From Amoebophrya sp. A120 (Eukaryota; Protista; Dinoflagellata): a stretch of 64,000 bases of DNA. Below are positions 4,801 through 59,838 of the stretch, piece after piece (positions within the stretch are counted from its first letter, which is position 1; each line of letters opens with the position of its first letter). The notes under the pieces were generated by a model. It searched no databases. It was not told where the DNA came from and saw only the letters and a list, made by a program, of their open reading frames with translations. The stretch spans positions 590,020 to 654,019 of the forward strand of contig CAJINV010000007.1 of assembly GCA_905178155.1 (NCBI GenBank), in the 5' to 3' direction. The translations under genes and the position numbers were made by a program.

Positions 4801-7800
4801 CATGTGTACCAAGACAAACACCTCTCAGATACATTTTCTGCATTACAAGTTTACAGTGAAACAGTTTTTTCTTGCGATAGAAACAGACGAAGTCGAGTTG
4901 ATGATCCGAGACAAAAAATTCCAATTGCTAGCCGAGGAACTGGAGCAGCAACTGCTTGCGATGACAACATCAAATGGTAACCACACCGGAGGTTCCGAAT
5001 CTTCCGAGCTGCAAGAAGATCATAGCCAGAGTGTTGCTGATGTTCCTTCTCGACTAGCCCCCGCCCCGCTTCGCTACGACAACCCTCTTGAGATTGAAAA
5101 AGTCTACCACTCAATTCTCCTCCGCTCCCCGTTACTTCGGAAAGCGATGCAGCTATTGAGAGGAAAAATCCCCCCTCCCCATATCGAAAAGGTATGCTTC
5201 CGAAAATTTGCGTTGCTGATTTGAGGTCACAAATCACATTTGTCTTGCAAGAAGACAATGGCAGAAGCTTCCGCCCCATTCTGGAAGCGATTTGTCATGC
5301 TGTTGGGCCTAAAGGGGAGCCGTTTGCAATGCTGAGCACCTAGACCCATACGCCCCTACCTAGCCTGGGGATCTGGCCGCAGTGCCCTCCTGCAATACAA
5401 AGCTGATTCGTGTACGCAAATCCAGCATCACAAACTTCGTTTTGATATGGGGTGGGGGGATTTTTCCTTTTGATAGCAGCAGGAGAAATCACTGTTGGAG
5501 GATTTGAACCGCAACCGAGATTACTTCTTTCGACTATTCCATTCGCTGTTCAGCTCGAGTGTCGTGAAACCGGGGTTGAGCAATGAGGGCGAGAAGTTGT
5601 TGCTGAAAAACCCACTTTTGCAATACTCCTTCAACTACGTAAAGGTGAATGTTAAGCAAGCTGGGAAGACGCAGAGCGAAAGAACCGGTGGCGGTAGTCG
5701 CGAAGATCATGCTCGACGTGGTCCTGTGACCGGCTACGCAACCGGCGAGGTCGACGGGATCTTTTCCGCGCCGGATGCTACAGTGAAGGTCTCACGAGAT
5801 GAATCATCACCTACGGGGGGTGGGATCAGAGAAGAGGACGACCAAAGGAGCCGCGGCGAGCATGAGGACCAACAAGCCGGTGAGGCAAGACCAGAACAAG
5901 ATGAGAAGCCGCCGGAGCTGCAGTTCACGGAGGAAGAACTATTCGACCGGACGTGCTGGCTTCCCTGCCCGACCATCGACTGGGAATTCCTTTGCCACGC
6001 GTTTGGAATTTGCGACAACGACGATAGTGGAGTCGCTGCTTCTGCTTCTGGGGAAGACGTTGAAGATAGCAGCAACCATTCGTCTCAGCAGTCTTCCCAT
6101 AAAAATCAAGATAAACCTCCGCAAGAAGGACCACCACAACTCCCCCCCTCCCCCCTCCTTCGGACGGAGCTGCAAAAGGAATTGATCCAGGCCTACAACA
6201 GCTGGGTCATTCCGGATCACGGGATATCAAATGCAAAAGTGTCTGGGTCTGGAAGGTTGGAACTTGTGATGCTGTCTCTGGATTCAAAAAAAATTTGTAT
6301 TGCATGACCAGCAAGAGGACTCCATTTTGTGCTACGCGGAGAGGGCTTTTCTCATGCGGTAGAAATATCACAAAGCCCTCTAAAAATCTGTGATGCTACG
6401 GCATGCATCACAGACATCATGGCTCATGGAAAATATGCATGACAAATCTCGAAATCTTCCAGACCCAGACATTTTTGCACTTGATACGGGACGAGATCCG
6501 TCGATTTCGAAGTGCACGGACGAGGCTACGGAGAGAGATACGACGCCTTTGCGGACAATTGGATTGCGCAGGAGAGGGACAGGATTGATATGCTGGAGAA
6601 ACCTACTGCATCATCACCTGGACTTACGGATGGTAGCTCGTTTGATTCATCTTCTGCACTACAAGACTCGTCTGCAGCTGCTGCCAGTGACCGCGAAAAT
6701 GATGCAAAAGCTCCCGACAATGCAGAGTCTGCACTAGCGGTTCTTGCCCCCGCGCACCAAGCATCGGCCACTGCTACGACCTACAATTCCGCAAGAAGTA
6801 CTAAATCTGTCGGCAAAGATATGCAAGAAAAAAACTGTGTAAGTGTAAATCTGTGATGCAGAACACGCAGCAGAGTTACACCTGTCATGCCAGACAGCCA
6901 TGCAGTCTTCTTTTCATGTGTGTTTTCCCTTACAAACCACGCATGACAGGTTTTCTCTGTCATGTAGAGCAAATTTGTAATGCTGTCAGCCAAAGATAGT
7001 TACACTAACACAGTTTTTTTTTTGGATAAAAGAAGAGTACGCTTCGCAAGACCGGGTGCGGAATTTAGAAAAAGCGAGATTGGAGAAAGAACAGTTGCTG
7101 AAAACACGCCAGGACAATGTAGGTAGCAGTACAACTAATGATCCGCAGGAAGGCAAAAAACCAGCAAAACTGGTGACCAAATTCACGATCGAGGAGCTCA
7201 TGAAACTTTGGGAGGGGGAGGGCGAGATGTTCTACGGTGGAAGTGCAACTTCTAAGGACGGGAAAAAAAGCAAAAAGGACAACAACAACAGCATACCCGA
7301 CGTTTTTCTCCGCGAGCACAAGAGCTACGAAATTCAAGAACTAGAGGCGAAAAAACGGGCTTTTCGGATCATGCTTTCAGTATATTGCAAGGAAAAATCC
7401 CCCCTCTCCATATCATAACGAAATTTCTGATGCTGGATTTGTGTACACAAATCAGCTTTGTATTGCAGGAAGGCACTGCGGCCAGATCCCCAGGCTAGGT
7501 AGGGGCGTATGGGTCTAGTTGTTCAGCATGGCAAACGGCTCCCCTTTAAGTCCACCAGCATGACAAACCGCTTCCCTAATGGGGCGGAAGCTTCTGCCCT
7601 TGTCGTCTTGCAAGACGCGCGCGATTTGTGACCTCAAATCAGCAAAGCAAATTTTCGGAAGCATAGGTTTTCAATATGGGGAGGGGGGATTTTTCCTTTC
7701 GATACAGTGGGCGAAGTGACAAGGGAAAACAACCAAGAGCCGAACGATCCGCTAGAACAGGTGGAAGCTTCTCAATCTTCTGCAGGCACAAAAAGCACAC

Positions 7801-8747
7801 GTCCAAAGTACGATATCACGAGAAAAAAGTGTATACAGTTACACATTTGTTGGAGTTTCTGCATCACATATTTTCTCTGTGTGGCAGAGAAAACTTGTAA
7901 TGCGAAGATCATAAGGGAAAACAGGAAGGAAACAAAGCTCCGAAGCATTTCCTGCATGAGAAAGGTTGTCTCTGTTGCCAGTCTTGCATGACAATGTGTA
8001 ACTGTAACACTTTTTTCTTGGATATACGAGCGCGCCGAGCAGGTCGCGTGTCAACAGGACCTGGGGAAGCTGTATCTCAAGTACAACTGGGCAATCGACG
8101 AGTATTACCCCGACGCGAAGAATCACTTCTACAAGGTTCCGATGCAAACGATCTACTCGGAGACGCAGCCGGTGACGTGCGTGCACCCAAGTCTCCCGGA
8201 TCTGAAAAACCTCATCGTGCAAAACTCCCCCTGCCGGGCGTATACTTGGAAGAAATCTTGGAAAAAACCGCTCAACCGGGCGTACTTCAAAAAGCAGAGC
8301 TGCAAGTTCGGGAGAGAATTGAAGCTGTTGATGCCGAAAGCAGCTGAAGTGCTGACGAGAAAGAACAACTGGGCGAGAGGGAAAGTGGAAGAAGAAATTC
8401 AGTACAACGATGATGGGGACCACGTCAAAGTAGACCCCACCACGACCACAACCGCCTCTAAAATGTTGAACGCTGGTGTTAGCTACGTGAACGTCAGCCA
8501 GGAACTGCCCTTTCTCAACTTCGAAAACGAACCGACGATCGAGAAATACTGGAAGTCAAGACCAAGAAATTCCCTCGTCCCTCCACACTCACACATTCCC
8601 AGAAATCTAACGACCACGACGGTGTTCGAGTTTCTGAAGTCCACGCTGCTCCCCATCGTCTTTTCCCAAGACGGGAACACGGTGTTTCTCCCCAGACTAG
8701 AGCCGGCGCAGTTAGATACGACGATACCCGGACATCAGGCGTCGTGA
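1848..8747 (+). CDS. Gene 1: ~1658-aa secreted or membrane-anchored protein with a glycosyltransferase-like N-terminal region; join(1848..2669,2815..3474,3688..4670,4885..5153,5481..6224,6492..6819,7034..7382,7710..7813,8030..8747)
   Basis: Removing 8 introners plus one DR each joins the ORF fragments in frame (4977 nt). Hydrophobic N-terminus. Motifs AIVFAG, HVFIC, YKRVVFTRFD and GICDHHAI recall uncharacterised GT-like proteins; function is tentative. Confidence 0.75.
2670..2809. mobile_element. Introner family B
   Basis: TIR tatgaaatgcaaaagtatcgta / tacgataattttgcagttcata; DR cggaa; restores LAEIEQ. Confidence 0.9.
3475..3682. mobile_element. Introner family C
   Basis: TIR core aaaaaagtgttacagttacac; DR tgctg; restores GLLYGR. 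Confidence 0.9.
4671..4879. mobile_element. Introner, C/E-related
   Basis: TIR tatcgtacgaaaaaaatgtttcactgtaa / ttacagtgaaacagttttttcttgcgata; DR gaaac. Confidence 0.9.
5154..5475. mobile_element. Introner family D
   Basis: TIR core ggaaaaatcccccctccccatatc; DR gcagc. Confidence 0.9.
6225..6486. mobile_element. Introner family A
   Basis: TIR tatcaaatgcaaaagtgtctgggtctggaag; DR cggga. Confidence 0.92.
6820..7028. mobile_element. Introner family E
   Basis: TIR tatgcaagaaaaaaactgtgtaagtgtaa; DR aaaga. Confidence 0.9.
7383..7704. mobile_element. Introner family D, opposite orientation to 5154
   Basis: Interior is the reverse complement of 5154-5475; DR cagta/cagtg. Confidence 0.9.
7814..8024. 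mobile_element. Introner family C, opposite orientation to 3475
   Basis: Family C TIR; DR tacga. Confidence 0.9.
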
Positions 8748-9493
8748 GGAAAGGGGTGGTCAGGGATGATTTTACTGAACTGCGCGGCATGTTGAAATTG
8801 AGAAATGTAATTTTCGCGCAGGAGGACCTTGATATCACGTCTGGATCGTGCAGCACAGGACTACATGTTGCCATATGGCTTTCACATCTAATGATCGTCG
8901 GACGCGTTTCATGCCTGCGCATGATGACTGCGTGTGTGTATGCAACAACCTTGAGCTCCGCCTTTTCGGCTGCAGTGGAGTTCGCACAATTAGCGATATT
9001 GATAAATCTGATGCGCTTCTGTAGGACAATTGGAAGCGTCACTCCGCTCCTGTCCCTCCTCCTCCTGTGGAGCCGTGTTTCTGTTCGGTGTTAAGCTGCA
9101 CACTTTTTCTTTTTGTGAAATTGATTTTGGAAGATCCTTTTGACCTGCCTGTCAACTCTGAAGAGATGTGGTTTTCTTCTTGAAACTTTCTCTCCTGGTC
9201 CTTTCGGTGCGCAGCGCTGGGTCCTGTTTTGCTACGGAAAAGGAGCTCAGATCGTGATCTACTACTGGAATATTTGTAAAAAAAATTTGTCGTTATTTTT
9301 CGTTTTCTAAGTACATGATTTAACAATATCTGGGGCATTTTCATTAGGCACCACTTCATTCCTGGCATTTATTGTCCCTCTTTTGGCCTCCGAATTGGAT
9401 CGGAATCGGACATCTTCAGTCGTGAAAGACTTTAAAAAATTCGATGTGAAACTCTTGGCTTCTTCGATAAAAAAGACCAAAGACACGACGACC

Positions 9494-12400
9494 ATGTCGG
9501 ACATCACTACCGTTCGTCTGTTGGCCCCCTACCCTGCCAAAGGGGATCAACATTTCATCCACGCGGCCGGGGGTTCCTGTACTACAGGAACTACTACAGC
9601 TACTACCCCACAACCACCTGCGGGAGATGAAAACAGAAAGTTCAACAAGGACCACGTGGAAGTTCTGACTTCCTACTCCTTAACCGGCGCTGTGGTCCTC
9701 GACGGTACAAAATCGACTTCCCTCACCGGTTTATCCTCGAGTGCCAACGTCGTTTCTCTGCTGCGGGAGCGTTTAATCGCCGAAAACGCGGTGCCCTTGC
9801 TCGGGAACGAAGAGATTACAGTGAAGAACAACGGTATGGAGAGAAACAAGTTTGTCACAGTCACTAACTTGCAGGTTTTGCAGTACAAATTTTTTCAGCA
9901 TCACAAACTTTCCTTGTGTTGCAGAAACACTAGGGAAATCCCTAATGAAGTTTGGCTGTGATGCATTTTTACGCATGACAAACAATTTTGTATTGCAAGA
10001 ATGCGCATGAGTGATCGTGACGAACTTTTTTTCTTTGATAAACGGATTGGAGGTGGACGTGAAATTGCTGTTACCGGAGGAGTTTTTTCGCGACGATAGT
10101 GCCAAGAAGCTAGGAGGTGAGAAACCTTGTCTTTCGACGTCCCAAGATGAAGATGAAGCCGCGACGACTGGGAATAATACCATCGAAGAGCACGAACCCG
10201 AGATTGAAAAAACCTTGCTCCACAAGTGGCTGGCCTGGCTGGTGCAGAAGGCGGTGGATGAAGATAGTGCGGACAATATCCTGTGTAAAAATGTCCCCAT
10301 GATCCCAGAGTTGTCATGCAGATTTGCGATTACAGGAACATTTGTAATGCGCATCGCCATGAGAGGCATTTCCAATCGTGTTTTTGAATCTGTAATGCTG
10401 TAAACACGGTGAGATAGTGGCTTTCTCATGCGGCTTCCCTTGCTAAGCAGACCTACACTTCTGCAGATGGAAACTTGTCATGCACAACTCCCAAACCTTG
10501 GAGATTTGTGTTGCAGATTTACCAATTTGAGTTTGACTACGGGGTGGGGGCATTTTTCCTCTCAAGAGAGAAAGTGGGAAAATGGACGGATCTGGCGGAA
10601 GTGGAGCTTTTATTTTGCTACCAGTATGGCTGCTCCTTTGACAAAACGAACAAAATCGTGGACAATTTGTCCTTGCTACAGCTACTAAAACTCTTCCCGA
10701 AGTGGTTTCAGATCAGCGAGACAGGACAGGAATTGCGGTTACTGGAAAAACCGGCGGTATTCGTTTAATGGAGTTTTTTCTAATGGTGATCGTTTATTCC
10801 ATGCGCATGTATAAATGCACCTTCCAGCATGCTAGTTTCTAGCACGATCGCAAATTATCCAAATTCTAATTGACGACTCGATTTTCAGGTCGCTCCCACG
10901 GTTCTTTCTACCGCCGCGGAACCCGAGCCGGAACTTGTTTCACCGCATGACAAACCGTCGTCACTCAAGGTCGATTTGGACCAAACTTTGGGCGACAATT
11001 CCTCCGTGCCCGACCTGTCTTCCTCCGTCAGCAGCAACAAGTTCCGCCCGCCGCCCGGTTTGGAAGCCTTGAGTGCAACATCCAGTTTGCCGAAGATCAT
11101 TAACTTGGAGAACGAGAAAACTATTCTTACTGGTTCCAACGATGATGATACAACGAATTTTGTCGCTACAACTCCCCGCGCAGCTGGTCTCCGCCCGACC
11201 TCGCTTTCCCAGGGAACTTCGGGGTTCTTCGGCACTCCGCCGCCGCTATCACGCAGAAAAAAGCAGGCAGGTCACATTTGTAATGCAAAAAATCTGTATT
11301 GCATATCCCAAACAGCATGCTATGTGGCCTCCCATGACAGATTTTTCTGTGTTTTCTTATTTTTGCATTACAAATCTGACCTGCCTGCTTTTTTCTGTGG
11401 GATAGCCGCCCCCTCCGCTGCCGGAGGACGGATTTTCTTCGGATGAGGAGGAGTATCAAATGTAAAAATGTCTGGGTCTGGAAGATTGCCGGGTTTGTCA
11501 TGCACATTTTGCATGACTCCTCAAGTCTGTGATGCATGCCCTAGCATCACAGATTTTTAGAGGGCTTCCTGATGCCTATTCCGCATGACAAATGCTCTTT
11601 CCGTGCTGCAAAATTCGGACTCTCTTTGCTGCTCATGCAATACAGATTTTTTTAGAATCCAAAATCAGCATGACAAGTTGGATTCTTCCAGACCCAGACA
11701 TTTTTACATTTGATAACGAGGAGGAGTTGTCTGCTTCTAAGGGAACGGCATCGAATCTGAATCTGTCGAATAAGCAGACATCCCTCAATGCCGCAGCGGA
11801 ACCCTTTACCATGCCACAAGCGCCACATGCTCAGGCGGGACGTGCAGCGATGTCGATGAAAGAAACCGCATCGCAGGTGGCAGCAGGGTTGAGTTCTTTA
11901 CCGGATTTCCACCACCAGCACCACGTGCACCAATACAACAATCATTTTCCCGGCAGTTCCTTCGCCTGTAACATTGGCACCATGCCCGGATCCTCCTTGC
12001 TGCACTATCCGCAAACGCCCGGGCCGCCGCCCCTAGCGGGACCCCTGCCCCAATTGCCCTACTACCTCAACGCCGGTGCTGGTGCAGCTAACGCGACCAC
12101 CTCCGGAGGAGATCAACAGTCCGCGGCACGAAAGCAAGAGCTACAGATGAAACCTGGTGTAGTCGTGCAGCAGCCAACATCTACCAGTACTACTTCTACC
12201 ACTCACGTGCTCGTCGCCACCGATCCTTCGTTCACCGGGATGGCTTCGACCTCCGCGGCGGCTGCTGGGAATTACTCTCCGTCGCATTTACAGTACCATG
12301 GTCACGTGCATCCGGCGCCGCAAATGCAGCTCTTCGGCGGTTCCATTTTCACGTATAATAACTGCAACCAGGGTTCTTCTGTGGTGAGCAATCCGAATGT

Positions 12401-14160
12401 TCTTGTCGGAAATCCACCGGGGACGAGCGCGTGCGGGAATGGCACAGCCACGACTGTGCAGAACTTCTTTCAGCAAAACTCCAGCTACGTCAGCAAGAAA
12501 TACTATCCGCAGTCTTTACTACCCGAACATTTGCAGCATCAACGACGGGCGAAACAGGAGGCGCGACTGACGCAGGAGGATTTCGCCATGCTGGCCGACA
12601 TCGATTCGGATTCCGATTTATCCACTGCAAATATGTTGTCTTGGACTGGAAGTAGAAATAGAATACAGACGTTTGTCATGCAGGTTCATCTGCATCGCGC
12701 AGAAGCAGAACCTACCAGAAGGTACTACGGTATGCATAGCATCACAGGTTCTACCGCGAGAGCGGTGCGATGCCTGTTCTGCATATAGGGATCCGCCCTC
12801 AGTTGTGTGGCCAAATAATGCGGGAAGCTTAGGCTGCACTCCTCGCATGACAGATTTTAGCGTGACTGGCAGAAAGCATCACAAGTTTTCATCTTTGCTT
12901 TCCAGAGCCAGACAGACTTGCAACCGATACGATTGCAGCTCCGATGCGGACACCTCGGATGAGGAGAGTACTTCTACTACTTCGATGTAGTTTTAAGATT
13001 GTATGTCGGATCGTACAAACGACAACTCGCATGACATTCACAAGCAGAGTTGCATAGTTGTGCATGACAAACTTGAATAATACCAAGATGCCGCCCTGGC
13101 GCTCTGTGAGCTGCGGCACCGGGCCACGGTCAACTGCGACTCGTTTTTGAAGCTGTTTCAGAACCACTGCTATGAATAGCAAACATGTCTCGGTCTGGAA
13201 AGAACTGTTGATGCTCGATTGGGGATTTGATTGCAGCAGGTTGTCTGAGTGCAGCGAAGCATGGTAAGTTTTTGAGACCTCATCCTGACCCTGAGTGCGC
13301 ATGACAAACTGCGTTTTTGCATGACAAAAAGAAGCTGCTGTGCCGTTGCTGGTGATTGTCATGTAGTGCAGATTGTAGAGAAATAGAAAAGCATGAGCAG
13401 CAATACAAGTTGCGTTTTCATCCCAGACCGTTAAACGTGTTTGCAATGCATAACCCCGACCTGAATGTTTTGAGCTACAAGAAGGAGGGGTTGATCCAGC
13501 ATGCGACGAAGTGGAAAGTGGAGGAAAAAGTGACGGTTTATATGCAAGAAAAAAACTGTGTAGGTGAAAGTCTGTGATGCAGAAAATGCAAAACAGTTAC
13601 ACTTGTCATACTGGACATGCATCAGAGGCTTTTTCCGTACGTGTTTTCACGTACTAGCCGGGCATGACAGGCTCTCTCTGTCATGCAGAGCAAACTTGTG
13701 ATGCTCTTCCTCCAAGAACGTTACACTAACACAATTTTTTCCTCTGATAGTTTACATCCCAGAACTACCGGCGGAAGGATATGGCGCTCTCAAACGTTAC
13801 ATCCTCAGCTGTCACATGAATTTGTTATGCAAAACTACCATCAAGATCCACACGAGCAAGCCGCTTCGCATGACAAATTTGCGAAGGGCTAAACAGCGCC
13901 GAAATCTGTGCGGAATTTGTAATGCTAGAGGTGCAACCTTCCCCTTGGACTTTTGCTATTCTTGCATTGCAAATTCGTGTAACAGATGAGAATGTAACGT
14001 TTGAGAATGCCATAAAGGAACCCGCTCCTACATCTGCTTGCCGATACTCTGTATACAACTTGTTTGTTCATCTCTGAAGATCATCTACTTTTCGCTGACC
14101 ACGTTAAGGAGGAGTATTGCTGGGTGTCTTGCGGGCGCGCATGAGAAAGAAGACCTTTGA
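9494..14160 (+). CDS. Gene 2: multi-exon protein with two putative OST-HTH/LOTUS-like domains and long low-complexity linkers
   Basis: 8 introners plus GT-AG introns 10757-10888 and probably 12968-13087 give a continuous frame; the junction near 10565 is uncertain. Segments WTDLAEVELLFCYQYGCSFD...SLLQLLKLFPKWFQI and VNCDSFLKLFQNH.DLNVLSYKKEGLIQ resemble the LOTUS pattern. Confidence 0.55.
9835..10040. mobile_element. Introner, C/E-related
   Basis: TA ends, imperfect TIR, DR aacgg; restores KNNGLEV. Confidence 0.85.
10277..10565. mobile_element. Introner family J with eroded right end
   Basis: Left tatcctgtgtaaaaatgtcccc as at 45920; right ggggtgggggcatttttcctctcaag lacks the terminal TA and a clear DR. 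Confidence 0.65.
10757..10888 (+). other. Canonical GT-AG intron
   Basis: gcg|gtattc...ctaat...ttttcag|gtc joins ORF 10475 to ORF 10976 in frame. Confidence 0.75.
11247..11404. mobile_element. Introner family K with ~45-bp TIR
   Basis: tatcacgcagaaaaaagcaggcaggtcacatttgtaatgcaaaaa with its inverse at the right end; DR gccgc. Confidence 0.9.
11454..11715. mobile_element. Introner family A, reverse orientation
   Basis: Family A TIR; flanks atgaggaggag / acgaggaggag. Confidence 0.9.
12619..12929. mobile_element. Degenerate introner family A
   Basis: Eroded TIR; DR cgatt; restores DSDCSS. Confidence 0.8.
13171..13452. mobile_element. Degenerate introner family A
   Basis: tatgaatagcaaacatgtctcggtctgg ... 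tttgcaatgcata; DR actgc/acccc; element plus 5 nt keeps the frame. Confidence 0.7.
13541..13749. mobile_element. Introner family E
   Basis: Similar to 6820; DR gttta. Confidence 0.9.
13780..14014. mobile_element. Introner family G-related
   Basis: TIR tatggcgctctcaaacgttacat / atgtaacgtttgagaatgccata; DR aagga. Confidence 0.88.
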
Positions 14161-14199
14161 TTAGATGATATGCACGACAAATAAGACGAAACACTTTGA

Positions 14200-14375
14200 G
14201 TGAGGTAACAAATTCCTCCGTTAAGTTACCGGGTAACTTAGCGTCCGGCCGGCCGCCGGACGCTAAGTTACCCGGTTCCCGGGATCCGGGATCCGGAGAA
14301 CGGAGCGGTCCGATCCGCTGGAACGGGCTGGCGGTTGGGAACCGGGTAACTTAACGGAGGAATTTGTTACCTCAC
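14200..14375. mobile_element. Intergenic MITE-like palindromic element, not of introner type
   Basis: 31-bp exact TIR gtgaggtaacaaattcctccgttaagttacc; internal perfect 22-bp hairpin 14228-14276. Confidence 0.8.
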
Positions 14376-16969: not shown

Positions 16970-19900
16970 ATGCTGCAGAATGTGTACTACTCCGCCAAAG
17001 ACGTTGCCGTTGGGGCTTTGATGCCTGGATCTTCTGCAAATCAAGACGACGAAGCGGCGGGTGCTGCAACTTCAAAGTTGGCGCGCAAGCACCCGGAGAA
17101 GCGGAAGAAGTGGGCTGCGGTGACCCGGGTTGGGAACACCGATGGTGATGACAGCAAGAGCAACCCGGCGGACATGATCCCGCAAGACGCCGAGTTTTTG
17201 AATGAAGAGGGGACGACGAATGAAGCGGGTCGTGATTCGAAACCGCGGAACTCTGACGACTCTACGTCAAGCCTTCAGAGGCATCTTCACTCAGCGTCCA
17301 GCTCCGCGCTGGAGAAGAAAAGCAAGGAGTTCTTGGCGGAGGAACAACAAGGTGCGAACGATGCTCGCGTCCGTGACAACGCTGATTCTGCTGGGCAAAA
17401 TAATGCTGGGAAAAATGACGAACCTGAGTCCAAAGACCATGATTACGATTCTTCGTGGGCTGGCAAAGTGTCGAGTTTCTTCCAAGCGGCCAGCGACGCG
17501 GTAATTGGAAGCTTTTTCCAGGTGGGAACCGCGAAAACTACTGCGGAAAGTAGCGGCGACAAAAATCTTCACCAGAGCAAGGAGCGAGATCAGCAGCTGC
17601 TCCCGCAGCAGTCCTTTCTCGAAGAAACACTGCCACCCACGAACAACATTGGCGTAATATCGACGCCGGCTCCGCAGTTTTCTCCGATTGGTTCGCCTTT
17701 GTTGGTGCCCGCAGGAGAAGGCACAACACCGTGGGAACCTGCCTCTCCGGAGACTGCTTCGGGGGGGTTTCTCGAGCAGGTTTCGAGCGTGTTGCAGGCG
17801 GGGACTGATGCGGTTGGAAGTTTGTTTCAGAGAACCAGTGCGGTAGTGGGGCTTTCACCGGGTGATCATCAGCATGCACAGGTGGAGCAGGAGGCCGAGC
17901 TCTCTGTGAAGACGACCAGCACGACAGAAACGTCGCCTCATCCGCCGGCGCCGCGTGCGGAGGGTTGTCCGTCAGACGATCAAACTGTGGCATCAAGTGT
18001 ATCGCACAGAAAAAAGCTAGCACTTCTCAACAGTGGTAAAAACGCATGATGCGTAATATCGAAATGCAGTTGCAATTGCACGCGAAAGACAATAAATACA
18101 ATAGTTCAAAAAGATTGTGTTTGTGACGCGCACGGCCGTCGCATGACACTCTGCAAGACTGGTTTTTGTTCAGCACGGCTTGTCTCTTTTCTACTGAAGT
18201 TGAGATGCTAGTAGTTATATTCTGTACGATAAAACCAAAACGAAGCCGTGTTGACGACAGCCACAACGGAAACGTCGCCGCACCCGCCGGCACCACCTGC
18301 GGGAAGTTTCACAGAGCTGCGAAAGGACCGCGCGAAACCAAGTTTGGATCCCAGTAAGAACGAGAATGCCAACGCGGACCAGGAGCTACGGACGTACAAA
18401 CGCCACATGGGTGCTGCTATCGAGAAGGTGAAGGGGATGGATCGAGCGCGGCGCAAACTGCAACGAAAATTGGAGTACCCAGAACTACGTGAGTTTGTCC
18501 AGTTGCGGGAAAGCAGGGCGAATAAAGAACAAGAAGCAGAGCGTGCAAATAAAGCAGGCTCTGAGACGAGCGGAGAGCGAGGACCAAGTGATCATGCAGA
18601 ACCAGCAGCAGCGGGAAACGCAAATCTGACTCGTCTTCAGGTGGAGATGTGCAAACTCGGGCCCAGCGTTGCCGGGCTGGTTCCCATCGAGCATTTTTTT
18701 GTCACGTTTTACAAAGAAAATTCACCGGTTGATGTTGGTGCCCAAGCCGCCAAGGGCCATACCCGTATCGTGGTTGCGGAGTATGAGGGAAGCGGTTTGG
18801 ATATCGCCACCCTGGACCAGCTTGACCACGAGCAGGCGGATTCGAGTATTTCCATCTACCAGGGCAAAAGGCGGAAGTACAGCAGCATCAACAATCCGGG
18901 GTTCTTTGGCATTGAAACGTGGACGGACGACTTGGACGCCTATAAGGAAAAACCTGAAGAGAAGAAGAAAAAGGCAAAGTCCCTTATTTGTTTGGGCATG
19001 GTCCCTGACAGCACCCCCCAAGCCGCATTGATACAACGACAAGGTCTGGGTGATGAAATTCCTTATGATGTGGGCACCTCGGGTCCGAAACAAAACGAGT
19101 TCAGGTTATACTCATTCGATGATCCTGTTGAGATTAAGGACCTGGTTGGGCTTGTGGGTCAGACGATGGGGTATGGGTGGAATGAAGATTACTCACTCAA
19201 GGGATCGCAACTGTCAACACTTTGTAAATGCGATTGTGAATCTTTTTTCTCCGCGACGGTACAACATATCTGTGCAGACACGAGCCCTGTCAAACACGGT
19301 ACTAAATATCGTAGTGCCAGATCATGTGGTACCTGCGGAAAGGGTAGACACTGACGGATTGAGAAACCAGCTGAAAAAGAATTTGCTCCATCTGCTGGAG
19401 ACTCTCCGTGATACAGTTACAGTTCAGGAAAAACATTCGCAAGGTGGGAGTACCAGTGGAATGCCTGCAAAAAGCAAAGTTCCACTGCACAAGCTTTGGA
19501 AGGACGAAGAAATGCGCAAGTTTGATCAGCTGCTTGAAGAAAATAAGCTCTCATATGAAAAAGGGGAGAAGATGGAACACGAACGAGAAGCGATCTCCGT
19601 AGTGGCTGATCCGCAGTTGATGACTCTGTTCGGTAAAATAGTCACAGAATCAGAAAAGTCACTCCTTGCGCAGGAACACACAGAAGCATCAGACCACGCT
19701 CCAGTCGACGAGGACAAGAAGAAGCTGGGTGTTTATGCTCACGCGATGGACACAATCTGTCGGGCTTCAAGTGACATGGTGCGGGATCGTTTGAAATTCG
19801 CACCAGATCCGAGCGCAATAAAAGTGCAGCGCCGCTATGCGTGCGAACTTTCCCGGGCTATGCGGACGGCAATTGAATCGGACACGGCCGAAAGCAGATT

Positions 19901-20809: not shown

Positions 20810-20863
20810 GTTCATGTCTTCGTTCATGTCTTCGTTCATGTCGTCGTTTATGTCTTCGTTCAT
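20810..20863. repeat. 12-bp minisatellite gttcatgtcttc, ~4.5 copies
   Basis: Seen directly. Confidence 0.8.
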
Positions 20864-39665: not shown

Positions 39666-42600
39666 ATGAACCAGCGGAAGAACCCCTTCGCGGGGGGCGG
39701 GCTCGGCGGCCGCGGACAGCACGGAGGTGCCAAACACGGGAGTCAGCATGACGAAAACCAAAATGACGATGAGAATCAAAACAACCCAGGAGACGGCAGT
39801 GGCTCAAACAATTCCGGCAATTTGCTGGCCGAAACGTTCTATCAACTGCAAAAATGTCTGGGTCTGGAAGGTTGCAACGTGTCATGCTAAATCTGAATCA
39901 GGCAAAATAAAAAACTGTGTTGCATAATTGCCAAAAGTTGTGCACTTTTGACCTAACCGAGAGGCAGTTTCTCATGCAGAATAGGCATTAGAACGGTCTC
40001 GCGGAATCTGTCATGCTATGTCCTACATACCAGACGAGACCTCATGGGTTATGCGAAATATGCATGACAAACCTGGTGGCAATCTTCCAGACCCAGACAT
40101 ATTTGCAGTTCATACCTTCTCCATCGAAACTCGGTTCAATGAGTTCTTCGACTCCCGCCCCGTCATGCTGTCGATGGCCTGTTTGACCGTATTTGTCTTA
40201 TGGGGTGACGACCTTCGGTTGTACGCGTTTCCGAAAGATTACGACCCGGTCTTCTACACCTTTTTCCTCATGGCCTTTCTCATTTTCTTTTTCGAGTTTA
40301 TGGGGAACACGATCTGCAAGCCGGGTTACAAGGGCGGGTTCTTCTTCTGGCTGGATTTGATCGCGACATTTAGTTTGCTGATCGACATTCCCTGGGTCCT
40401 GGCACTGATCGAGAAGTTAATCGCGAGTAGTTCCGGGCAGTCGGACGACGAAGAATCGGGTGCAGCGTCGATCTATGCATTGCAAATGTGTCTGGGTCTG
40501 GAATGGTGTGAACTTGTGATGCGCATTTCACAACACACACAAATCTCTGATGCGTAGGCAGCAAAAGATGCCCACTTACTGTCACCAAAATGGAGGATTT
40601 GTCATGCGGATTCGGCATTGCGGAATCTTCTCGAAACCTGTGATGCTAGGGCTTCCATGCCAGAGCTTCTGTGTCATGCAAACACAGCACGACAAAACTC
40701 TGCAGTCTTCCAGACCCAGACATCCTTGCATTTCATACGATCAACTCCACGGTCGCGACGGTGCGAACTGCCCGGGCGGTGCGGCTCGTGCGGTTGATCC
40801 GGTTGGTGCGAGTGGTGAAGCTGTGGTCCATGGTACGGAAGGCGAACGAGTTTTGGGAGTGTCAGGATTGAAATCGTCGAATTTGAAATACTAGTTTGTC
40901 ATGCATAGAATACAGCCCACAAAGTGCCTGTCTTGCAGAGTAGGCAAGTGAGGTAGATCGTAAGCTTGTTGAGGGGTAGAAACTGAGCTGCTAAAGTAGG
41001 ATGACAAAAGGCGTCTTCCTTACCCAAACAGCATGAGAGAAACTGGATTTCGGCTCTACCCAAATTTGTCATGCGCCACTTGGAAAGTGGGTTACAACTT
41101 TCATCCATTTTATGCATATACTTACAAACTTTGTCGGTTTCAATCCTGACACATCCATACGAATCCCAAACGGACGAGATGCTGCAGCAGCAACAACGGA
41201 ATGCGCAGAACGCGAAGCAAGCGGCTCTGAAGCGGGTGGAGGCAAGTCGGTTGGGGAAGTTGTTGTCGGAGATGACGACAAGACGGGTCGTCGTCATGGT
41301 ACTGATGATGCTCTTCGTCTTACCGTTTCTCGACCCGGCGGATTTGGACAACTCCAAAGTGTTCGGTCTCTCGCTCCTGTTCTGGTTCGGCCGCAGCTGG
41401 TGCGACACGAATCCAAGTGGTGCGACATCTTCAGGTAGTTCCTCTTCCTCCTCCTCCGCGGCTTCTTCCAGTGACCACTACGGGTGTTCCGAGTTTCAAA
41501 CGGAAAACTGGCTTTTTCTTGACGGGTGGCGGCTATGACCTACTCAAACGTTACAATCTCAAACGTTGCAATAGAGTCTGGAATTTGTTGTCTCGCATAA
41601 TGAGCATGACAGACTCGCAGACCATTCCACTTTCTGCAACACAAATTTCGGCAGATTGTAGTCTGGTTTGGGACTCCGGAACTTGTCATGCGCAGTCCTA
41701 TGAGACTTGGCTAGATCATGCACTTCTTGCATGACAGATTTGCAAGTTCTATTGTAACGTTTGAGATTGTAACGGTTGAGCAGGTCATAGCGGCACCTGG
41801 TGTTTTCCTATTCGCAGCTCAGCCGGGACCGCTATGAAGTGCAAATATGTCTGGGTCTGGATGAAAAGTGGAACTTGTAATGCGTGTCTTGCATTTCTGG
41901 AAAATCTTCTGTGTTGCATGTGTAGCAAAAGAGGAGCTTCCACCTTTGTCATGCAAAAACGAGATTTGTAATGCGTGCTAGGCATCAACCGGCGTCTGAA
42001 AAACTTGTCATGCTTGGCTGCCATTGCATTTGCAAGCGCCTCCGTGAACATGCGCGACTCAGCATCACAGGTTTCCAGACCGAGACAAATTTGCATTTCA
42101 TAACCGGTACGCAAGCACGACTGCGGACCACCTGAAACTGACCGAACCGCTGCTGTGGTATGCATTGCAAATATGTCTGGGACTGGAAGGTTGCAACTTG
42201 TGATGCTGTCCTCACATTCCAAAAGGATTGGTAGTGCAGGAGCAGCAAGAGAAGTCCAGTTTGTGCTACGTGGGGAAGGCATTTCTCATGCGGAATTTTA
42301 GAAATCTGTGATGCTAGATCATGCATTACAAGCATCGCCGGTCATGCGAAGTATGCATGACAAACGTGGCAATCTTCCAGACCCAGACATATTTGCATTT
42401 GATATGTGGCTGCGGGTCCCCAATTGGGCGGACGGGGGGAAGATGAGCGACATCGCGTCGGTATCAATTGCAAAAATGTGGTCTGGGTCTGGAAGAGTCA
42501 TGCTGCTTTTGCATGACACAGAAGGCCTGCCATGGAAGTTCTAGGATCACAGGTTTCGAGAAGCTTCCGCAAAAATGCCGAATCCGCATGACAAATCCCC

Positions 42601-45600
42601 CATTCTGGTGACAGAAAGTGGCCAGCTTTTGCTGCCTGTGCATGAAAGATTTTTATGGGTTGTAAAATGCGCATCACAAGTTTGCATTCTTCCGGACCCA
42701 GACACTTTTGCATTTGATAGTCGGTGGTAACGGACAAGGGCTCGTGGTACGAAAACGCGTTCTGCGGCCGGCTGTTTCTGGTCACGAACGGGGACCACTG
42801 TCCGCATCGGGAGGACGAACTCGAGGATGTGATTTACATTCCCCCAAACACGGAGCAGATGATCATCGCAGTGGCCCGGTTTGACCGGTCGGAGTTTTCG
42901 CGGGAACAAGCAGCGGTCTCCATGCTGCAAACGTGTTTCGTGTGCATTCTCCTCGGTACGATGTCGATTCAGTTTCAGAACGACACGCAGTCACTCGTGA
43001 TTCGGCCGATCGAAAAGATGGTAAATATCATCAAGCAACTAGCGGAGGACCCGCTAGAGCCACCGAATCTTGACGAAGACGGAGAGGAGAATGGGAACGG
43101 CAGTGCAAGTTCTATGGGCGGCGGTGGTGGCGGCTCTGGTGGGGGAGCAGGGGGGAATAGCGGTGATGGGAAAAATATCGTGTGCAAAAGTATCGCATTC
43201 GTATTGCAGTCGTGCATTATAAATCTTTTTCTTAAAGGTAAATCCGCATATCAAATTCCATTACTCATGCTGAGGAAATTTGTAATGCATTCATACGAGT
43301 ACGATACTTTTGCAGTTCATAAAAGAGAAGAAGAAGAAAAATAAGGGGCCACAGCTGGAAACCACGATGCTTGAGAACACCATTTTGAAAATCGGCGGAT
43401 TGTTGCAGGTACAGAAGTTCTTACGTTTTTGAAGATGTCTGCACGCATGATTGGCGCAAGGAGGTGATCACGATCAGTACCTAGACCCGTAAAGAGAGCA
43501 TGCGCATGAAAATGATCCCTCCCCAAGTAGTTCCTGCTTCTTTCTTTCGAGAGCCGCTATAGAAATCACCTCGAAATTTTACTTTACTTAGGTTGGTTTC
43601 GGCGAGGCCGGTGCACAGATCATCGGGAAGAACATGTCATCCGGCGACGGCGAGCTGAATATCATGATGCCGGGGTCGAAAGTGGAGTCCATTTTTGGTT
43701 TCGTGGATATCCGGCAGTTCACCGACACGACAGAGTGTTTGGAGGAAGACGTCATGGTGTTTGTCAACTCCATATCAAATGTAAAAATGTCTGGGTCTGG
43801 AGGAATGCCACTTGTTATGCTGCATTTGGATTCCAGAAAAATCTGTATTGCATGAGTACCAAAAGGAATGTAATTTTTGCTACACGGAGAGGGCATATGT
43901 CATGCGCAATAGGCATCAAGAAGCTCTGAAAAAATCTGTGATGCTAGGGCATGCATCACAGACATCAGGGCTCATGCAAAACGTGCATGACAAGTGTCAG
44001 AATGTTCCAGATCCAGACATTTTTACAGTTGATACTCCATCGGCTACATTGTGCACAAGTGCGTCCACCGCTGGTCTGGGGTGGCGAACAAAAACATCGT
44101 ACTCAGACGAAAAGATCTCCCCTCCCCATACTGAAAGCGCATCCGTGTGAAAATCTGTGATGCAGATCTGTGGCCACAAATCCTGTCTGTCTTGCAAGAA
44201 GGCAAACCCAGAGAGTCCGCCGCATTATGCAGGCGGTTTGTGATGCTGGTCGGCTTACAGCGTCGACATCTGTCATGCCAGTCTCCTACATCAAAACCTT
44301 GCGACTCCGGCTTGGCATATGCCTGCAGTCCTCTCCTGCAAGACAAATTTGTGTACGGAAATGCAGCATGAGAAACTTCGTTTTGATATCGGGAGGGGGG
44401 ATTTTTCCTTTTGGTACATCGGGGACGCCTTCCTCGTGCTGTGGAAGATTCCGGACCGGAACAGTTTCGGGTCAAATGGAGGGAGTAGTGGTGGGCTGTT
44501 CGGGTCCCACGGCTCGGCGGGGAGCAGCCAGCTGCAGGTAGCCGACATTGCGGACCGGAGTTTGGTAACCACTGCAAAAGTATCGTACTCGTAGAACCTA
44601 ATCCCAACACTGTGTGCTGCTGACAATATTATGTCCTCCCTACTGAATCCAGATCAGCATCACAAATTCTTCTATTAGTATTTACATTGCTTGACTTCCG
44701 GGTTCTGGTACGGCATACCCCCGGCGAGAGGTGACCTTGACAGGTGACCTCGACAGGTGACCGTGACAGGTGACCTCGACAGGTGACCTTGACAGGTGAC
44801 CTTGACAGGTGACCTCGACAGGTGACCCGGACAGGTGGCCACGACAGGCGACGACGACAGGCGAAGCGAGAGGTGAAACGAGAGGCGACGCGACAGGCGA
44901 GGAAAGAGGATAAATCACAGCTGAGGCCAACACCTACGCGCGTTTCGTTCTTGACGTGAAAAGCAAATATTTGCGACGCAGAAAATGAAAAAGATAAAAG
45001 GGCAAAGACACAAAGAACTGGCCCCACACACAAAGACGTTTCTGCGTCGCCATGAAAAAATAAAAAAGCGCTTACTTCTGCAACCAATGCACGCCCGGGA
45101 GACCGTCTCCCGGAGACGGCTGCTTACTTCGCCTCCGGAATCGGGAATGAGTTGCGCATCAATATTAGAGAACTTCTCTTCAGCAGCCGGGCAGAGATAT
45201 CGCCTTTGCTTCTATTTCATTTTTGTCTTGCAAAATGCAGGCACCTAATTCATCCTTTTGTTTTGCCAATAGCGCACTAAGCCACCATGCGCGCGCCTGG
45301 TGTGAGGCGAGGGGCGGACGCTGTCCGCCCCGAAGGCGAACACCCTTTCCCCACTAGCGCCACTAGGGACGGGCACAAGGCCCCAGCGTGGGGACCCTGT
45401 CCCCACGCGTGGGTCTTGTTTTTCATGCTGCGCAAATTTGTCATTCGGTGCTGGCTACTAGAACTATCCAGTGCGACACTTTTGCAAAAATGCATATTTG
45501 TTCGCGTTTCTCAAAATCATCGCTGAGGCAAAGCGGTCCGAGCGCATCAAGTCCTTCGCGAGTCACCCCCGGATCATCCAGAAATTTGGCAAAAACTGTA

Positions 45601-48600
45601 TAACCTGCTCAGGTGTTACAATCTCAAGCGTTACAATAGAATATGGAAATCTGTCATGCAAGAAATGCATTATCTACTTAGCCAACTCTCGCAGGATTGC
45701 GCATGACAAGTTCTGGAGTCCCAAACCGCGCTGCAATTATCTGGCGTAGTTTGTATTGCGGAAAGTGGAACGCTGTCCGAGTCTGTCATGCTCATTGTGC
45801 AATACAAAACCCGGACTGTATTGCAACGTTTGAGATTGCAACGTTTGAGCAGGTCATAAACTGCGAGGTCTGCCGGTTTGGGCTTGGGCTGCACGTCGGG
45901 TGGGCGATCGAAGGTCCAATATCCTGTGTAAAAACGCCCTTACCCCAAAGTTAAGTTGGGAATTTGGCAAGACAAGTCGACCATCTTTGGGACTCACGCA
46001 TAGCAAGTTCTTTGGCTTCTACGCAGTGCAGTCGTGCCTAGCTAGGTCAAACGCATCACAGATCCAGTCTGGCACCCTGATTAGCGCATGACAGGTTTTT
46101 CCCAGATGCCACTAGGTAATGCCTCTCATAGAGTGAGCGGCATGACACACATTCTGAGCATGCAGATCTGCATGACAGCTATTGGGTGGGGAAGTTTCTC
46201 CTCAGGGTATCCAATCGGCAGTGACTACAAAATCGACGCGAGTTACCTGAGTCCGCACGTGAATATCACGATGTCGCTGGAGGCCTGGACGAAGATTTAC
46301 CTGGTGAATCTGCTCCTGTCCGAGCCACTGTACCTCTTCCTGTCGCTGAAGGCCAAACAACGGTGTCGGAAGATCGACATGGTGAGCATTTCGACGGACA
46401 TATGCAATGCAAAAGCATCGTACTAGTACAAATTGCATTACAAAGTAGCCCACCATTACAAATTGAATTTGTAATGCTGATTTACCCTGAGAAAGAGATT
46501 TGTAATGCATAAATGCAATTAGAATTACTACGAGTGCGATACTTTTGCACAGGATAGGACAATGCTAGTAGCAACGCGACAGTGGTCTTGTCCACTTCTA
46601 CTTCCGGAGCAGGAACGAGCTCGTCAGGTACCGGTGGCGGCGCCCAGGACGCGGGTGGCGAGGGCGGAAGTGGTCTTGCTGGATCTGTTACGAGTCTCGG
46701 CGCAGGAGGAGCAAGTGCGGCTCCGACTAGAACCGCATATCACAGGAAAAAAGTGTTACAGTTACACATCTCTTGGAACTTCTGCATCACAAATTTGCTC
46801 TGCATGCCGAAGAAAACTTGTAATGCGCAGACCATAAGGGAAAACACGAATGGAATGAGGCTGGCAATTGTTTCCTGCATGACAGAGGTTGTCTGTCTTG
46901 CTTGTCTCGCATGAGAGTGTGTAACTGTAACACTTTTTTCTCACGATACCGCGGGCGCGCTGTTAAGTAGTTCCGGTTCGGTGTTACTGGCATCTGGTGG
47001 CGCTGTATCAAGTGCAAATATGTCTGGGTCTGGAAGGTTGGAACTTGTGATGCTAACTTTGGACTCTAAAAAAAACTGTATTGCATGACCAGCAAGAGGA
47101 GTCTAGTTATTTGCGCTACGCGGGGAGGGCGTTTGTCGTGCGGCGTAGGCATCAGGAAGCCCTCTAGAAATCTGTGATGCTAGGTCGTGCATTACAGACG
47201 TCCTGGGTCATGCAAAACATGCATGACAAGTCTCAGAATCTTCCAGACCCAGACATATTTGCATTTGATACGCTGGCGCGTCGCACGGGGCCGGGTCGTC
47301 AAGCACCAATGGGAAGCCGTTTGGGCTGTACACCTTTCCCATGGATGTCACCAACTGCGTCGCCACCACGCCGTATCAATTTCTCGAGCAGCACCGGTCG
47401 CCGGGCGACGTGTGGAAACCGGAATCATTGTCCGAGAATGTCTATCAAATGCAGCTCAATATGTCGGAGTCTGGAAGAATGCAACCTGTGATGCTAAGTT
47501 TGGAATCTAAAAAAATCTGTAAATGCATGAGCAGCAATAAAAGGAGTCGACTTGTTTTTGCTACGCGGCGAGGGCGTTTCTCATCATGCGGGATAGGCAT
47601 CAAGAAGATGCCCGCAAAAAATCTGTGATGCTGCTGCATACACCACAGACATCATGGGTGGTCATGCAAGGTGTGCATTTGACAAACCTTGCATCCCTCT
47701 AGTGACCACATTCATATTTGCAAAACTGCATAATGTCAACACGGATGTTATAGAGATGCGCGACGGGGTGGAGTTTTTGTTCCTGATCGACAAAGTATGA
47801 CAGTGCACATAGCTGCCCCTCCCCCTCATTCGTATAGCATGAACGGCAATACAAGCATCAGCAAGAGTGCCGGTTTTGCATGACAGATTTGCACCGGAGT
47901 ATAGTGCTATTTGGGCTAGTGCCAGAACTTGTCATGCATAATAGTGACAGGAGGGAAAGCGTGGATTTGGTAGTTTGCATGAGAAATGAGAACGAGTGGG
48001 AGTTGTGCACTTTCATACAAAGACGTGCATCTGCTGCAGAAAAACGTTCCGGGTTTTGATCCAGACCTGCTGCAAGTCAACTGCTCTACGCAGCTGGAGG
48101 TGAAAGCGAAACAGAGAATATGCAAACAAAAAAAGTGTTACAGTTACACATTGTGTTGCGGCAAGCCCTGTCATGCCGGATATGCACAAGAACACAATTT
48201 CATGAGTGTTTTCCCTTGTGATCTCTGTCATGCAAGGCAAGTTCGTCTTAGTGAGCCGAAGGCACTACAAATGTGTAAACTGTAACACTTTTTTTGTGCG
48301 ACAGCGCAAAGCGCTCAGCTACTACCTCGCGGGCGATTGGCGCTTGGCCAGGGAGTATTACGAGGATTTGCTCGGGAATAGTAATTCCCAGTCAGGAACA
48401 ACAGCAAATAAGGGAAAAAATAATCCTGATGGAGGTACTAGTGGTAAAAACACTTCTTCAGCATCCCAAGCCGGTGGTGGAATGATGTCAGATGGCGACC
48501 AAAATAAACAAGCACCGGGAGTTGTAGATTCTGAGAATGAGGATGCCAGTGACGCAATCTCCAAGTCTACGCTTTCCAATGTGACCGTGAGCACCGCCGG

Positions 48601-57588: not shown

Positions 57589-57976
57589 AACAACTCTAAA
57601 ATAGTTGCAATTGGGAAAAAGCAACAGGCATGCTTGTAGATGTCAGTAGACCCTCAATTATAAATATCCTGTGCTCGTAAAAAAGGATTGGGTTGTAAAG
57701 TTCCTCTTGCATCTGCACGCTACTGTTTTTATTTCACTCCGCCGTACGAAATTGAAGATGCACGGACCTTGAGTGTGATGAAACTGCGCTCTTGAACTTT
57801 GCCTCCTTAGACTGACGCACAGCATCCTAGCTCTTAAGTACGTCGGACAGACCTGCTGCTCTATACATGCAAGACAAGTAATTCTTATCCTAAGAAGTAA
57901 GGCCCTTTCGGGCGGGCAGGTCCGCTTGCAAAAAACGTGCGGCCGCTCTTTCCACTTCCCACTCGTGTCGTGCTAA

Positions 57977-59838
57977 AAAAACCCATCCCACGGCTGTTGG
58001 AAGATCATCCACAACTACGTGGGCCGCCGCGGGGCGCTTTTCATTCTCATATCTTCGTCCGCGCCCTCGTCCACAGGGCAAAAGGCAGGAACAGTGAGGA
58101 GGAAGTTCTCGTTTGCAGACGAGTTACCCCAGAAAGCCGTCGAGTTACCCCAGAACGGAAACGTATGGATGTGTCAGAGTTGAAATCGACAAAGTTGAAA
58201 TAATTTGTCATGCATAAAATGGATGCCAGTTGGAACCCAGTTCCCAAGTGGCGCATGACAAATTTCGGTGGTCCCTAAATCCAGTTTGTCATGCTGTTTA
58301 GGCAAAGAAGAGCGATTTTCTCATGCTACTTTAGCAGCTCGAGCTGTGACCCCAAACAGGCTTACAATCGGCCTCAATTGCCTGCTCTGCAACACACGTA
58401 CCTCGGGTCATGCATTTCATGCATTACAAATCATTTCAACTTTGACGATTTCACACCTGACGCTCCCATAAAACGTAGCTCCGTTGACCGAAAAAAATCT
58501 GGCAGCTGCCAAGTTGACCAAGGACGGGCTATTGTGAGGAAAAATCCCCCCTCCCCATATCGAAAGCGAGATTTGTGTTGCTGTATTTGAGTACACAAAT
58601 CACGTCTGTCTTGCTGGAGAGGACTGCAGACCCATATCAAGCCTGAGTAGAGAGGCTTTGACTTAGGCGCTTAGCATGAAAAGCGTCCGTGATGTTGGCT
58701 CAACAGCATGACAAACCGCCTGCACAATGCTGCGTAGCTTGTCGAGTTGCCTTCTTGCAAGACAGACGTGATTTGAGGTCGCAAATCAGCAACACAAATT
58801 TCCGGAAGCATAGTACCTTTTCGATATGGGGAGGGGGGATTTTTCCTCTTAATACGGGCTGCGCGTTATCCTGTGCAAAAGTATCGCACTCGTATCAATG
58901 CCAGACTAGCATCATGACATCAAGTCTGGTTTTTTATGTAATTTAGCATGACAAATTGAATTATTTCATGCTGAGCTAATTTGTAATGCATCTACACGAG
59001 TACGATACTTTTGCAGTTCATACGCGTCGTGCCTATTCAACCAAATCGTTTTCTTCCTCGCACCAAGACACCAGGAACAGCCCTTGCTCGGCCGGGATCC
59101 ACCAAGCCACACGGTGGGTCTCCTCCTTCTGGACGTGGAACAAGCGCAAGCGGTTTGGCTCTCACAAGTCGTGTATGCATTGCAAATATGTCCGGGTGGT
59201 CTGGAAGGTTGGAACTTGTGATGCCTTCTTTGGATTCTAAAAAAATCTGTATTGCGTGACCAGCAAGAGGCGCGTAGTTTGTGCTACGCGGAGAGGGTAG
59301 TTCTCATGCGGAATAGGTAACAGGAAGCCCTCTAAAAATCTGTGATGCTAGGTCATGCATTACAGGCGTCATGGGTCAGGCGAAGTATGCATGACAAGCC
59401 TAGCAATCTTCCAGACCCAGACATATTTGCACTGCATATCGACGGCAGCCGCCGACCGGAAGAATTTCATTCGGGATGTTGAGCAAGAGTATGAATAACG
59501 GCGGAAAAGGGAACAATAAAGGCGGCAAAGGGATGAAAGCTGCGGGAAAAGGGAAAGGCGTGGGGTGGAAGGGCAAGGGAAAAGCTGTCAACAAGGGGAA
59601 GAACGGCAAGGGAAAAGGTGCCAAGGGAATTGGCAAAATGGGAACCGGCAAAATGGGAAACGGCAAGGGAAAGGGAAGCAGCCGCGACGGAAACGGAAAA
59701 GGCAAGGGCGAAGGTGGCAAAGGAAAAAGTGGCAAGGGAAAAGGTGGCAAGGGAAAAGGTGGCAAGGGAAAAGCGGCGTGGAAATCAGCTTCCTTTGCGG
59801 AAGTCGACGCGGAAGGGACGATTAGTGGGCCACTTTGA
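57977..59838 (+). CDS. Gene 8: basic protein ending in a Gly/Lys (GKGKG) repeat domain; start codon not located
   Basis: Removing four introners gives ...DELPQKAVELPQNGNVAPLTEKNLAAAKLTKDGLRVVPIQ... running into ORF 59476..59838. Confidence 0.65.
58164..58470. mobile_element. Introner family H, opposite orientation to 40852
   Basis: Family H TIR; DR aaacg. Confidence 0.9.
58530..58854. mobile_element. Introner family D
   Basis: Family D TIR; DR cgggc. Confidence 0.92.
58867..59022. mobile_element. Introner family B
   Basis: Family B TIR; DR cgcgt. Confidence 0.92.
59174..59438. mobile_element. Introner family A
   Basis: Family A TIR; DR tcgtg/tcgac. Confidence 0.88.

Follow-up and report, generated by a model that had tools for sequence, protein, structure and literature searches.

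Introner elements inserted in either orientation in genes of Amoebophrya sp. A120 appear to be removed with one gene-polar register

Non-canonical introns have been reported to make up more than 60% of the introns of Amoebophrya (Farhat 2021, PMC7789003). For strain A120, the same work describes introner elements with inverted repeats that start with TAT, continue with seven variable nucleotides and then As, are bordered by direct repeats, form a hairpin and have non-canonical ends; A25 elements start with TTA and two purines and have TT donors. Most spliceosome proteins as well as U2, U4, U5 and U6 were reported in A120, and U1 was undetected. Elsewhere, hairpin-guided removal has been proposed for the nonconventional introns of Euglena and diplonemids, and full-length circles have been reported for those of Euglena (PMC11282704, PMC12621601). 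Here, we analysed a stretch of 64,000 nucleotides from Amoebophrya sp. A120 (assembly GCA_905178155.1, contig CAJINV010000007.1, positions 590,020 to 654,019 of the forward strand; below, the window), in which we count 53 elements of the form TAT...ATA. These are the introner elements described in A120: they form repeated families, are absent from transcripts and have non-canonical ends, and the host label agrees, as P0001, a deposited Amoebophrya sp. A120 protein, is 100% identical to a window exon.

The set was built from a paired-end scan of the window, which gave 56 candidates. Six of these (at 1020, 14211, 14718, 19608, 27271 and 60887) were discarded by eye, three elements (4264, 47443 and 62298) were added through similarity, and one start was shifted from 57315 to 57311. 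The final elements measure 140-388 nt. The T, A and T of the start are found in 53, 52 and 51 of them, respectively, and an A-rich run occupies intron positions +12 to +16. The flanking 5-bp direct repeat, or target-site duplication (TSD), is perfect in 38/53 and matches at no fewer than four of its five positions in 48/53, counts that are partly circular because the repeat fed the detection score; in 15 elements the two copies differ. What is duplicated is a variable 5-mer, with 52 distinct junction 5-mers among the 53 and TA within only three, and the TAT and ATA ends depart together with the element. Elements with the atypical ends TTT (40852), AGA (10277) and ACA (48119) are nevertheless skipped in the contigs described below, so the terminal triplets tolerate single changes.

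The original prediction had singled out seven pairs of related elements lying in opposite orientations within + strand genes, with the frame restored both ways. All 14 elements begin where predicted and have TAT...ATA ends and 5-bp direct repeats, the exception being 40852 with its TTT start. After 30 nt had been stripped from each end, the paired elements aligned as reverse complements with identities of 0.70-0.90, against 0.46-0.62 on the same strand; shuffled controls gave a mean of 0.49-0.52 and a maximum of 0.57. All seven pairs are thus oppositely oriented. Both orientations are present in all eight multi-copy families, with zero inconsistent edges: 14:4 in family A (skew p=0.03, uncorrected), 4:4 in C, 3:2 in D, 2:3 in a short family, 2:1 in F and 1:1 in each of three pairs.

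Removal of each element together with 5 nt yields open reading frames (ORFs) of 1617, 867, 3144, 604, 503 and 262 aa over these 14 elements, all on the + strand; in the 262-aa ORF, which covers 58164, no Met occurs before aa 142. Removal of 0, 1, 3, 4, 6 or 7 extra nt fails to rebuild the ORFs, and 2 extra nt do so only in part. The 1617-aa ORF (1728..8744, +) opens after removal of nine elements, the 867-aa ORF (9311..14157, +) after removal of eight elements and two GT-AG introns, as seen from frame and RNA joints, and the 604-aa ORF (39555..43429, +), seen from the frame, after removal of eight elements. In the whole window, 50 of the 53 elements lie within an ORF of at least 150 aa and three are without such a host; retention breaks the ORF in 49 of the 50, including that of every one of the 14. 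General in-frame read-through was ruled out, as (length+5) mod 3 divides the elements 23/18/12. At 4264-4501, in-frame read-through would be possible (81 extra aa), yet the element is skipped in three of the four RNA-like runs.

These four runs, X3-X6, consist of unstranded contigs from one sample, and their RNA kind is a guess. Two raw RNA runs, X9 and X10, yielded 6 and 0 reads. Two + strand GT-AG introns, at 10757..10888 (start GTATT) and 12968..13087 (start GTACT), are skipped in them, and the depth of X3 is 0 in the bin 49156-49800, which is covered by X1, a run that we take to be DNA; the contigs therefore behave as mRNA. The intron at 10757 also sets the host strand as +. Among the 15 of 17 joints listed, 13 belong to elements and two to the canonical introns; two further element joints come from X3. 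The element plus 5 nt is skipped at 15/15 two-sided element joints, and for families A, C and D this holds in both orientations, so that removal either way round, as originally proposed, is seen in the RNA-like contigs themselves. Families F, G and H are covered in one orientation each. A single X3 contig of 3053 nt (record 1), covering 4134-8994, lacks seven elements, including D+, D-, C+, C- and A+ copies, and its undisplayed middle measures 782 nt, as predicted. An apparent joint at 48805 was rejected, since the record is minus-strand and merely ends there.

For the cited elements, removal is direct at 5154, 7383, 6225, 11454, 7814 and 37361, and follows from piece ends or length arithmetic at 40474, 40852, 41534 and 42462. 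In family D, the + copy at 5154..5475 (TSD GCAGC) is bridged by a joint 5148/5476 and the - copy at 7383..7704 by a joint 7377/7705 with a slide of 4. In family C, the - copies at 7814..8024 and 4671..4879 are bridged at 7808/8025 and 4664/4879, and their RNA-shown + partner at 6820..7028 at 6814/7029; for the cited + copy at 3475..3682 the basis is the frame, which retention breaks, and the low or absent RNA cover over it carries no weight. In family A, the + copy at 6225..6486 has the joint 6218/6486 and the - copy at 11454..11715 the joint 11450/11718. Each of these seven joints is found in all four RNA-like runs. X3 record 10 joins 35597 to 35865 across a further A+ copy (35602..35863) and 37355 to 37580 across the + copy of family F (37361..37579). 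Record 11 restarts at 40117, after the A+ copy at 39840..40114, and halts at 40468, continuing for 47 nt, before that at 40474..40737. Record 12 restarts at 41164, after the + copy of family H (40852..41159), halts at 41528, before the + copy of family G (41534..41789), and holds between 41528 and 42720 a stretch of 141 nt, the exon sum predicted for removal of the elements at 41534, 41833, 42159 and 42462, the last being an A- copy (42462..42719). For the - copies at 47796..48017 (F), 58164..58470 (H) and 45599..45858 (G) the basis is the frame. At 5153, 6225 and 11718-11719, RNA-like contigs link element ends to flanks of other loci, some of them identically in all four runs; these may be retained elements, precursors or DNA carry-over.

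To locate the cut, we defined the register as the position of the first intron base counted from the T of TAT, and read it from mismatches between the two TSD copies. Ten junctions are informative in this respect. At 7383, the copies differ at position 5 and the kept base derives from the downstream copy, which places the register at most at -1 (inferred intron 7382-7708). At the other junctions read from contigs the upstream copy is kept. The element at 10277..10567, which ends in AGA and is opposite to one at 45920, differs at position 3 (joint 10274/10571; register at least -2); 11454 and 39840 differ at position 2 (at least -3) and 35602 at position 1 (at least -4). A bound of at least -1 is given by a divergent family A copy with an indirect family link (13171..13452, -; joint 13169/13457; positions 3 and 4), by 40852 (position 4), by a member of the short family (43176..43321; position 4), before which record 12 halts at 43174, and by a degenerate C-like element with the end ACA (48119..48303; positions 2 and 4), after which X3 record 13 restarts at 48308. 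The junctions at 39840, 40852, 43176 and 48119 are one-sided piece ends and assume removal of the element plus 5 nt. For the tenth, at 18000..18231, where positions 3-5 differ, the residues expected for each register were predicted before P0001 was examined; the protein carries the hybrid junction of register -2 or -1. Register -1 violates none of the ten junctions, 0 violates two, -2 four, and -3 to -5 six to nine. Agreement in 10/10 has a chance of ~6e-4 under a uniform random cut, with a Bayes factor of ~260 over a cut random per element.

We infer that the intron begins 1 nt ahead of TAT and ends 4 nt beyond ATA, as N-TAT...ATA-NNNN, whatever the orientation of the element; either way round, the upstream copy supplies TSD positions 1-4 and the downstream copy supplies position 5. 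Were the cut tied to the element, reversed copies would show the mirror register -4, which the opposite family A copies at 39840 and 11454 exclude. The element thus carries a symmetric signal, with the same 5' end and stem whichever way it points, but its removal is polar, and the polarity appears to be set by gene direction. The original prediction was right about the symmetry of the signal and about removal of both orientations. Table S4 of PMC7789003 lists N-T donors for all nine top A120 types, which is compatible with -1; we did not count it as independent support, since 8/9 acceptors begin with A, suggesting a placement bias.

The cut, made at the RNA level, might instead be loose or vary in position within the target repeat, and seem to have one register only by accident of the small sample or through the way in which the pieces were placed. 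This is very unlikely in view of the ten concordant junctions and of the displayed RNA-like pieces, which carry 0 other letters and share the same joints in all runs that cover them. In its favour, the identical repeats of 38 of the 53 elements are uninformative, and in PMC7789003 the position of the splice sites with respect to the hairpin is described as variable.

The possibility that the elements are excised precisely from DNA in some life stage, as ciliate internal eliminated sequences (IESs) are, was the second of two options offered in the original prediction, the first being hairpin-guided cleavage and ligation of RNA. Symmetric inverted ends starting with TA and the precise restoration of the empty site would suit it, and because contigs drop rare variants, rare or stage-limited empty sites could escape. 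However, all eight displayed contigs of X1 enter the elements at a single-copy depth of 24-32, and two of them span whole elements (30283 and 47443). X1, a run of unstated kind and stage, was taken as DNA from its flat depth of ~30 over unique sequence; the 15 joints listed for it connect different repeat copies, and 921 further joints, like the depth at true joints, lie outside this listing. Moreover, the sequence kept at the junction is the variable 5-mer and not TA, and the register is asymmetric and independent of element orientation. A separate germline nucleus is not known in Amoebophrya, and without one a precise excision would be inherited as a loss. We regard excision from DNA as very improbable, and the likeness to TA-bounded IESs drawn earlier does not hold, since TAT and ATA leave with the element. 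No related loci were found in metagenome contigs, and hence no natural empty allele. An asymmetric register points to a machine acting on the transcript, and removal is, with high confidence, RNA-level and gene-polar.

Which machine this is we judge more evenly. At register -1, intron position +2 is T in 53/53 and +3 is A in 52/53, as in the two canonical introns of the window, which start GTAT and GTAC, and this favours the spliceosome, for and against which we find the balance even. A25 ends would also yield T+2/A+3, if that placement is right. A stem of at least 10 nt between the first and last arms is predicted in 52/53 elements on either strand; its three terminal positions pair in 152/156 cases, positions 4-7 pair poorly, and positions 9-22 pair in 635/718. 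Since 5' sequence and stem are the same in both orientations, two-way removal is accounted for. The elements are non-autonomous transposon copies in genes, and we put forward, with as much doubt as conviction, that a modified spliceosome takes them out of the pre-mRNA, with the terminal hairpin as its ruler. A transposase would insert the element in random orientation, and the inverted ends would offer an identical N-T-A-T 5' end and stem either way round. T+2/A+3 would substitute for the GTA donor, and the 3' cut would be placed by distance from the stem rather than by AG. More speculatively, pairing of the 3' arm with the donor might replace the undetected U1. The polarity of the spliceosome, earlier held to be a bar to two-way removal, does not exclude it as argued, since introner classes found in either orientation have been described in Polarella and Aureococcus (bioRxiv 2020.10.14.339549).

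Several observations speak against this proposal. G occupies +1 in 16/53 elements (background 0.30, p=1.0), a terminal AG is found in 5/53 (background 0.063, p=0.39), and GT-AG in 0/53 at any register. No conserved branch motif was found near the 3' ends of the 53 elements, where position -9 is T in 31/53; the A residues at -7 (51/53) and -5 (53/53) belong to the terminal inverted repeat (TIR), and candidate branch A residues lie within the predicted stem. T+2/A+3 are fixed by the transposon end, so that the match to GTA may be a 1-in-6 coincidence of register. Counts of G-U against A-C oppositions in the stem (50 vs 40, p=0.34) do not single out the transcript strand. As to the register, the Bayes factor falls to ~2 when only the five two-sided RNA joints are counted, its upper bound is set by just two junctions, 7383 (RNA) and 18000 (gene model), and one-sided piece ends make up 4/10 of the informative junctions. 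Every host ORF is on the + strand, so that a polarity of the gene cannot be told from one of the window strand, and the RNA data are unstranded, from one sample and labelled as RNA by guess. The lower folding of the sense strand in 37/53 elements was not used, being confounded by base skew.

The same observations bear on the other option of the original prediction, which stays a live rival, as excision of the IES kind does not. A separate, non-spliceosomal machinery guided by the hairpin, either an endonuclease with a ligase or another transesterification, might cut at -1/+4 outside the stem, and we consider it a serious if somewhat improbable candidate. It would account for the absence of any base preference at +1, -2 and -1 and for a stem predicted in both orientations. 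The short 5' and longer 3' extension past the stem parallels the arrangement N3CDG...CH'GN5-6|R of Euglena, in which introns reportedly occur as full-length circles, and U1 is undetected in A120. On the other hand, T+2/A+3 sit in the register of a canonical donor; the near-invariant terminal TAT/ATA next to poorly paired positions 4-7 suggests that sequence is read at the end; the lack of strand bias among G-U pairs counts here too; and this analysis identified no candidate enzyme. More tentatively still, A120 may possess a second RNA splicing system besides the spliceosome, one that recognises nothing but the TAT/ATA stem at the element ends, measures 1 and 4 bases outward from it and evolved independently of the Euglena system. 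Such a system would be the RNA-level counterpart of IES excision: the mRNA would be restored exactly to its state before insertion, wherever the element sits and whichever way it points, and tens of thousands of transposons in exons would do no harm.

Several further features of the window were noted. At 16500-16875 lies a degenerate 376-nt element outside the 53 counted, where P0001 skips 381 nt, that is, the element plus 5; it was dropped as register evidence since its junction, though compatible, is synonymous. The canonical intron at 12968-13087 starts with GTACTT, contains the GCATGACAAA motif common inside elements and has ATA near its 3' end, and is possibly an old element turned canonical. 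The family A copy at 57311-57575 has four extra bases between the upstream repeat and TAT; an alternative start TAC preceded by G (a GTACTT donor) is possible, and a stop follows within 3-8 codons under both starts. In another family A copy, at 59841-60102, the first bases of the target repeat are the stop codon that ends the ORF before it. Inverted arms like those of the short family occur at 55105-55612 and 44571-44597 without TAT/ATA ends or a target repeat, possibly as decayed copies. A repeat of a different kind is found at 14200-14375, a nested palindrome of 176 nt whose perfect arms measure 31 nt and which lacks a TAT end. The intergenic segment 48968-51591 is flanked by an exact 47-nt direct repeat (with a partial third copy at ~50365) and holds 36-nt and 98-nt tandem repeats, and at 49171-49768 X1 shows many variant letters, as expected of a multi-copy element. 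Protein searches with the exons 8025-8744 and 59029-59166 returned no match, and no Pfam families were found in six window proteins.

Two-way insertion alone is only mildly surprising, as two-way introners with canonical sites are known elsewhere. What is new here is that mismatches between TSD copies locate the cut, and that the cut appears to follow a gene-polar -1/+4 rule without canonical dinucleotides; a full-text literature search, which did not extend to subscription journals, listed no paper whose title or consulted passages describe, for Amoebophrya, removal that is independent of orientation or has a fixed register. For the removal of its non-canonical introns, a fixed rule of this kind supplies exact intron ends, so that lariat, circle or linear products can be sought directly and gene models can be corrected. 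If the original mRNA is restored from any site and in either orientation, insertion is nearly free. Either outcome would be informative, whether the spliceosome proves insensitive to G+1 and AG or a new enzyme carries out the splicing.

Among described systems, the A120 introners of PMC7789003 are the same elements; the available text of that paper does not treat orientation and calls the borders variable or unknown, whereas we find two-way removal of the element plus 5 nt at -1/+4. The introners of Polarella glacialis and Aureococcus are likewise TIR/TSD transposon introns, with several classes inserted both ways, usually with a bias; they bring G(T/C/A) and AG sites along or co-opt them, and neither G+1 nor AG is enriched here. 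A U2 spliceosomal intron is recognised by a GT (GC/GA) donor and an AG acceptor, which the A120 elements lack, and by a polarity set by the transcript; here a single polar register is seen in both element orientations, with all hosts on one strand. In Fritillaria borealis (PMC11282704; PMC13326754), TIR/TSD-derived introns without GT-AG are attributed to an adapted U2 spliceosome; they prefer AG-AC or AG-AT ends and U1 is retained, whereas in A120 positions +1, -2 and -1 are unconstrained and U1 is undetected. TA-bound ciliate IESs (bioRxiv 2022.05.02.489906) share with the elements an origin from miniature inverted-repeat transposable elements (MITEs), an intragenic location, inverted ends starting with TA(T) and precise removal; they leave one copy of a TA-containing repeat and are removed from DNA, whereas in A120 the repeat that stays behind has no set sequence and the DNA-like run shows occupied sites. 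The nonconventional introns of Euglena (PMC12501133), for which a MITE origin has been proposed, also have stem-paired ends with few unpaired nucleotides before and more after the stem, and direct repeats. Their stem is of the CAG/CTG type, with offsets of 3 and 5-6 nt and a purine after the cut, in place of TAT/ATA with 1 and 4 nt and a first exon base that is A or G in 34/53, and the A120 elements are set apart from them by recognisable repeat families and a uniform 5-bp TSD.

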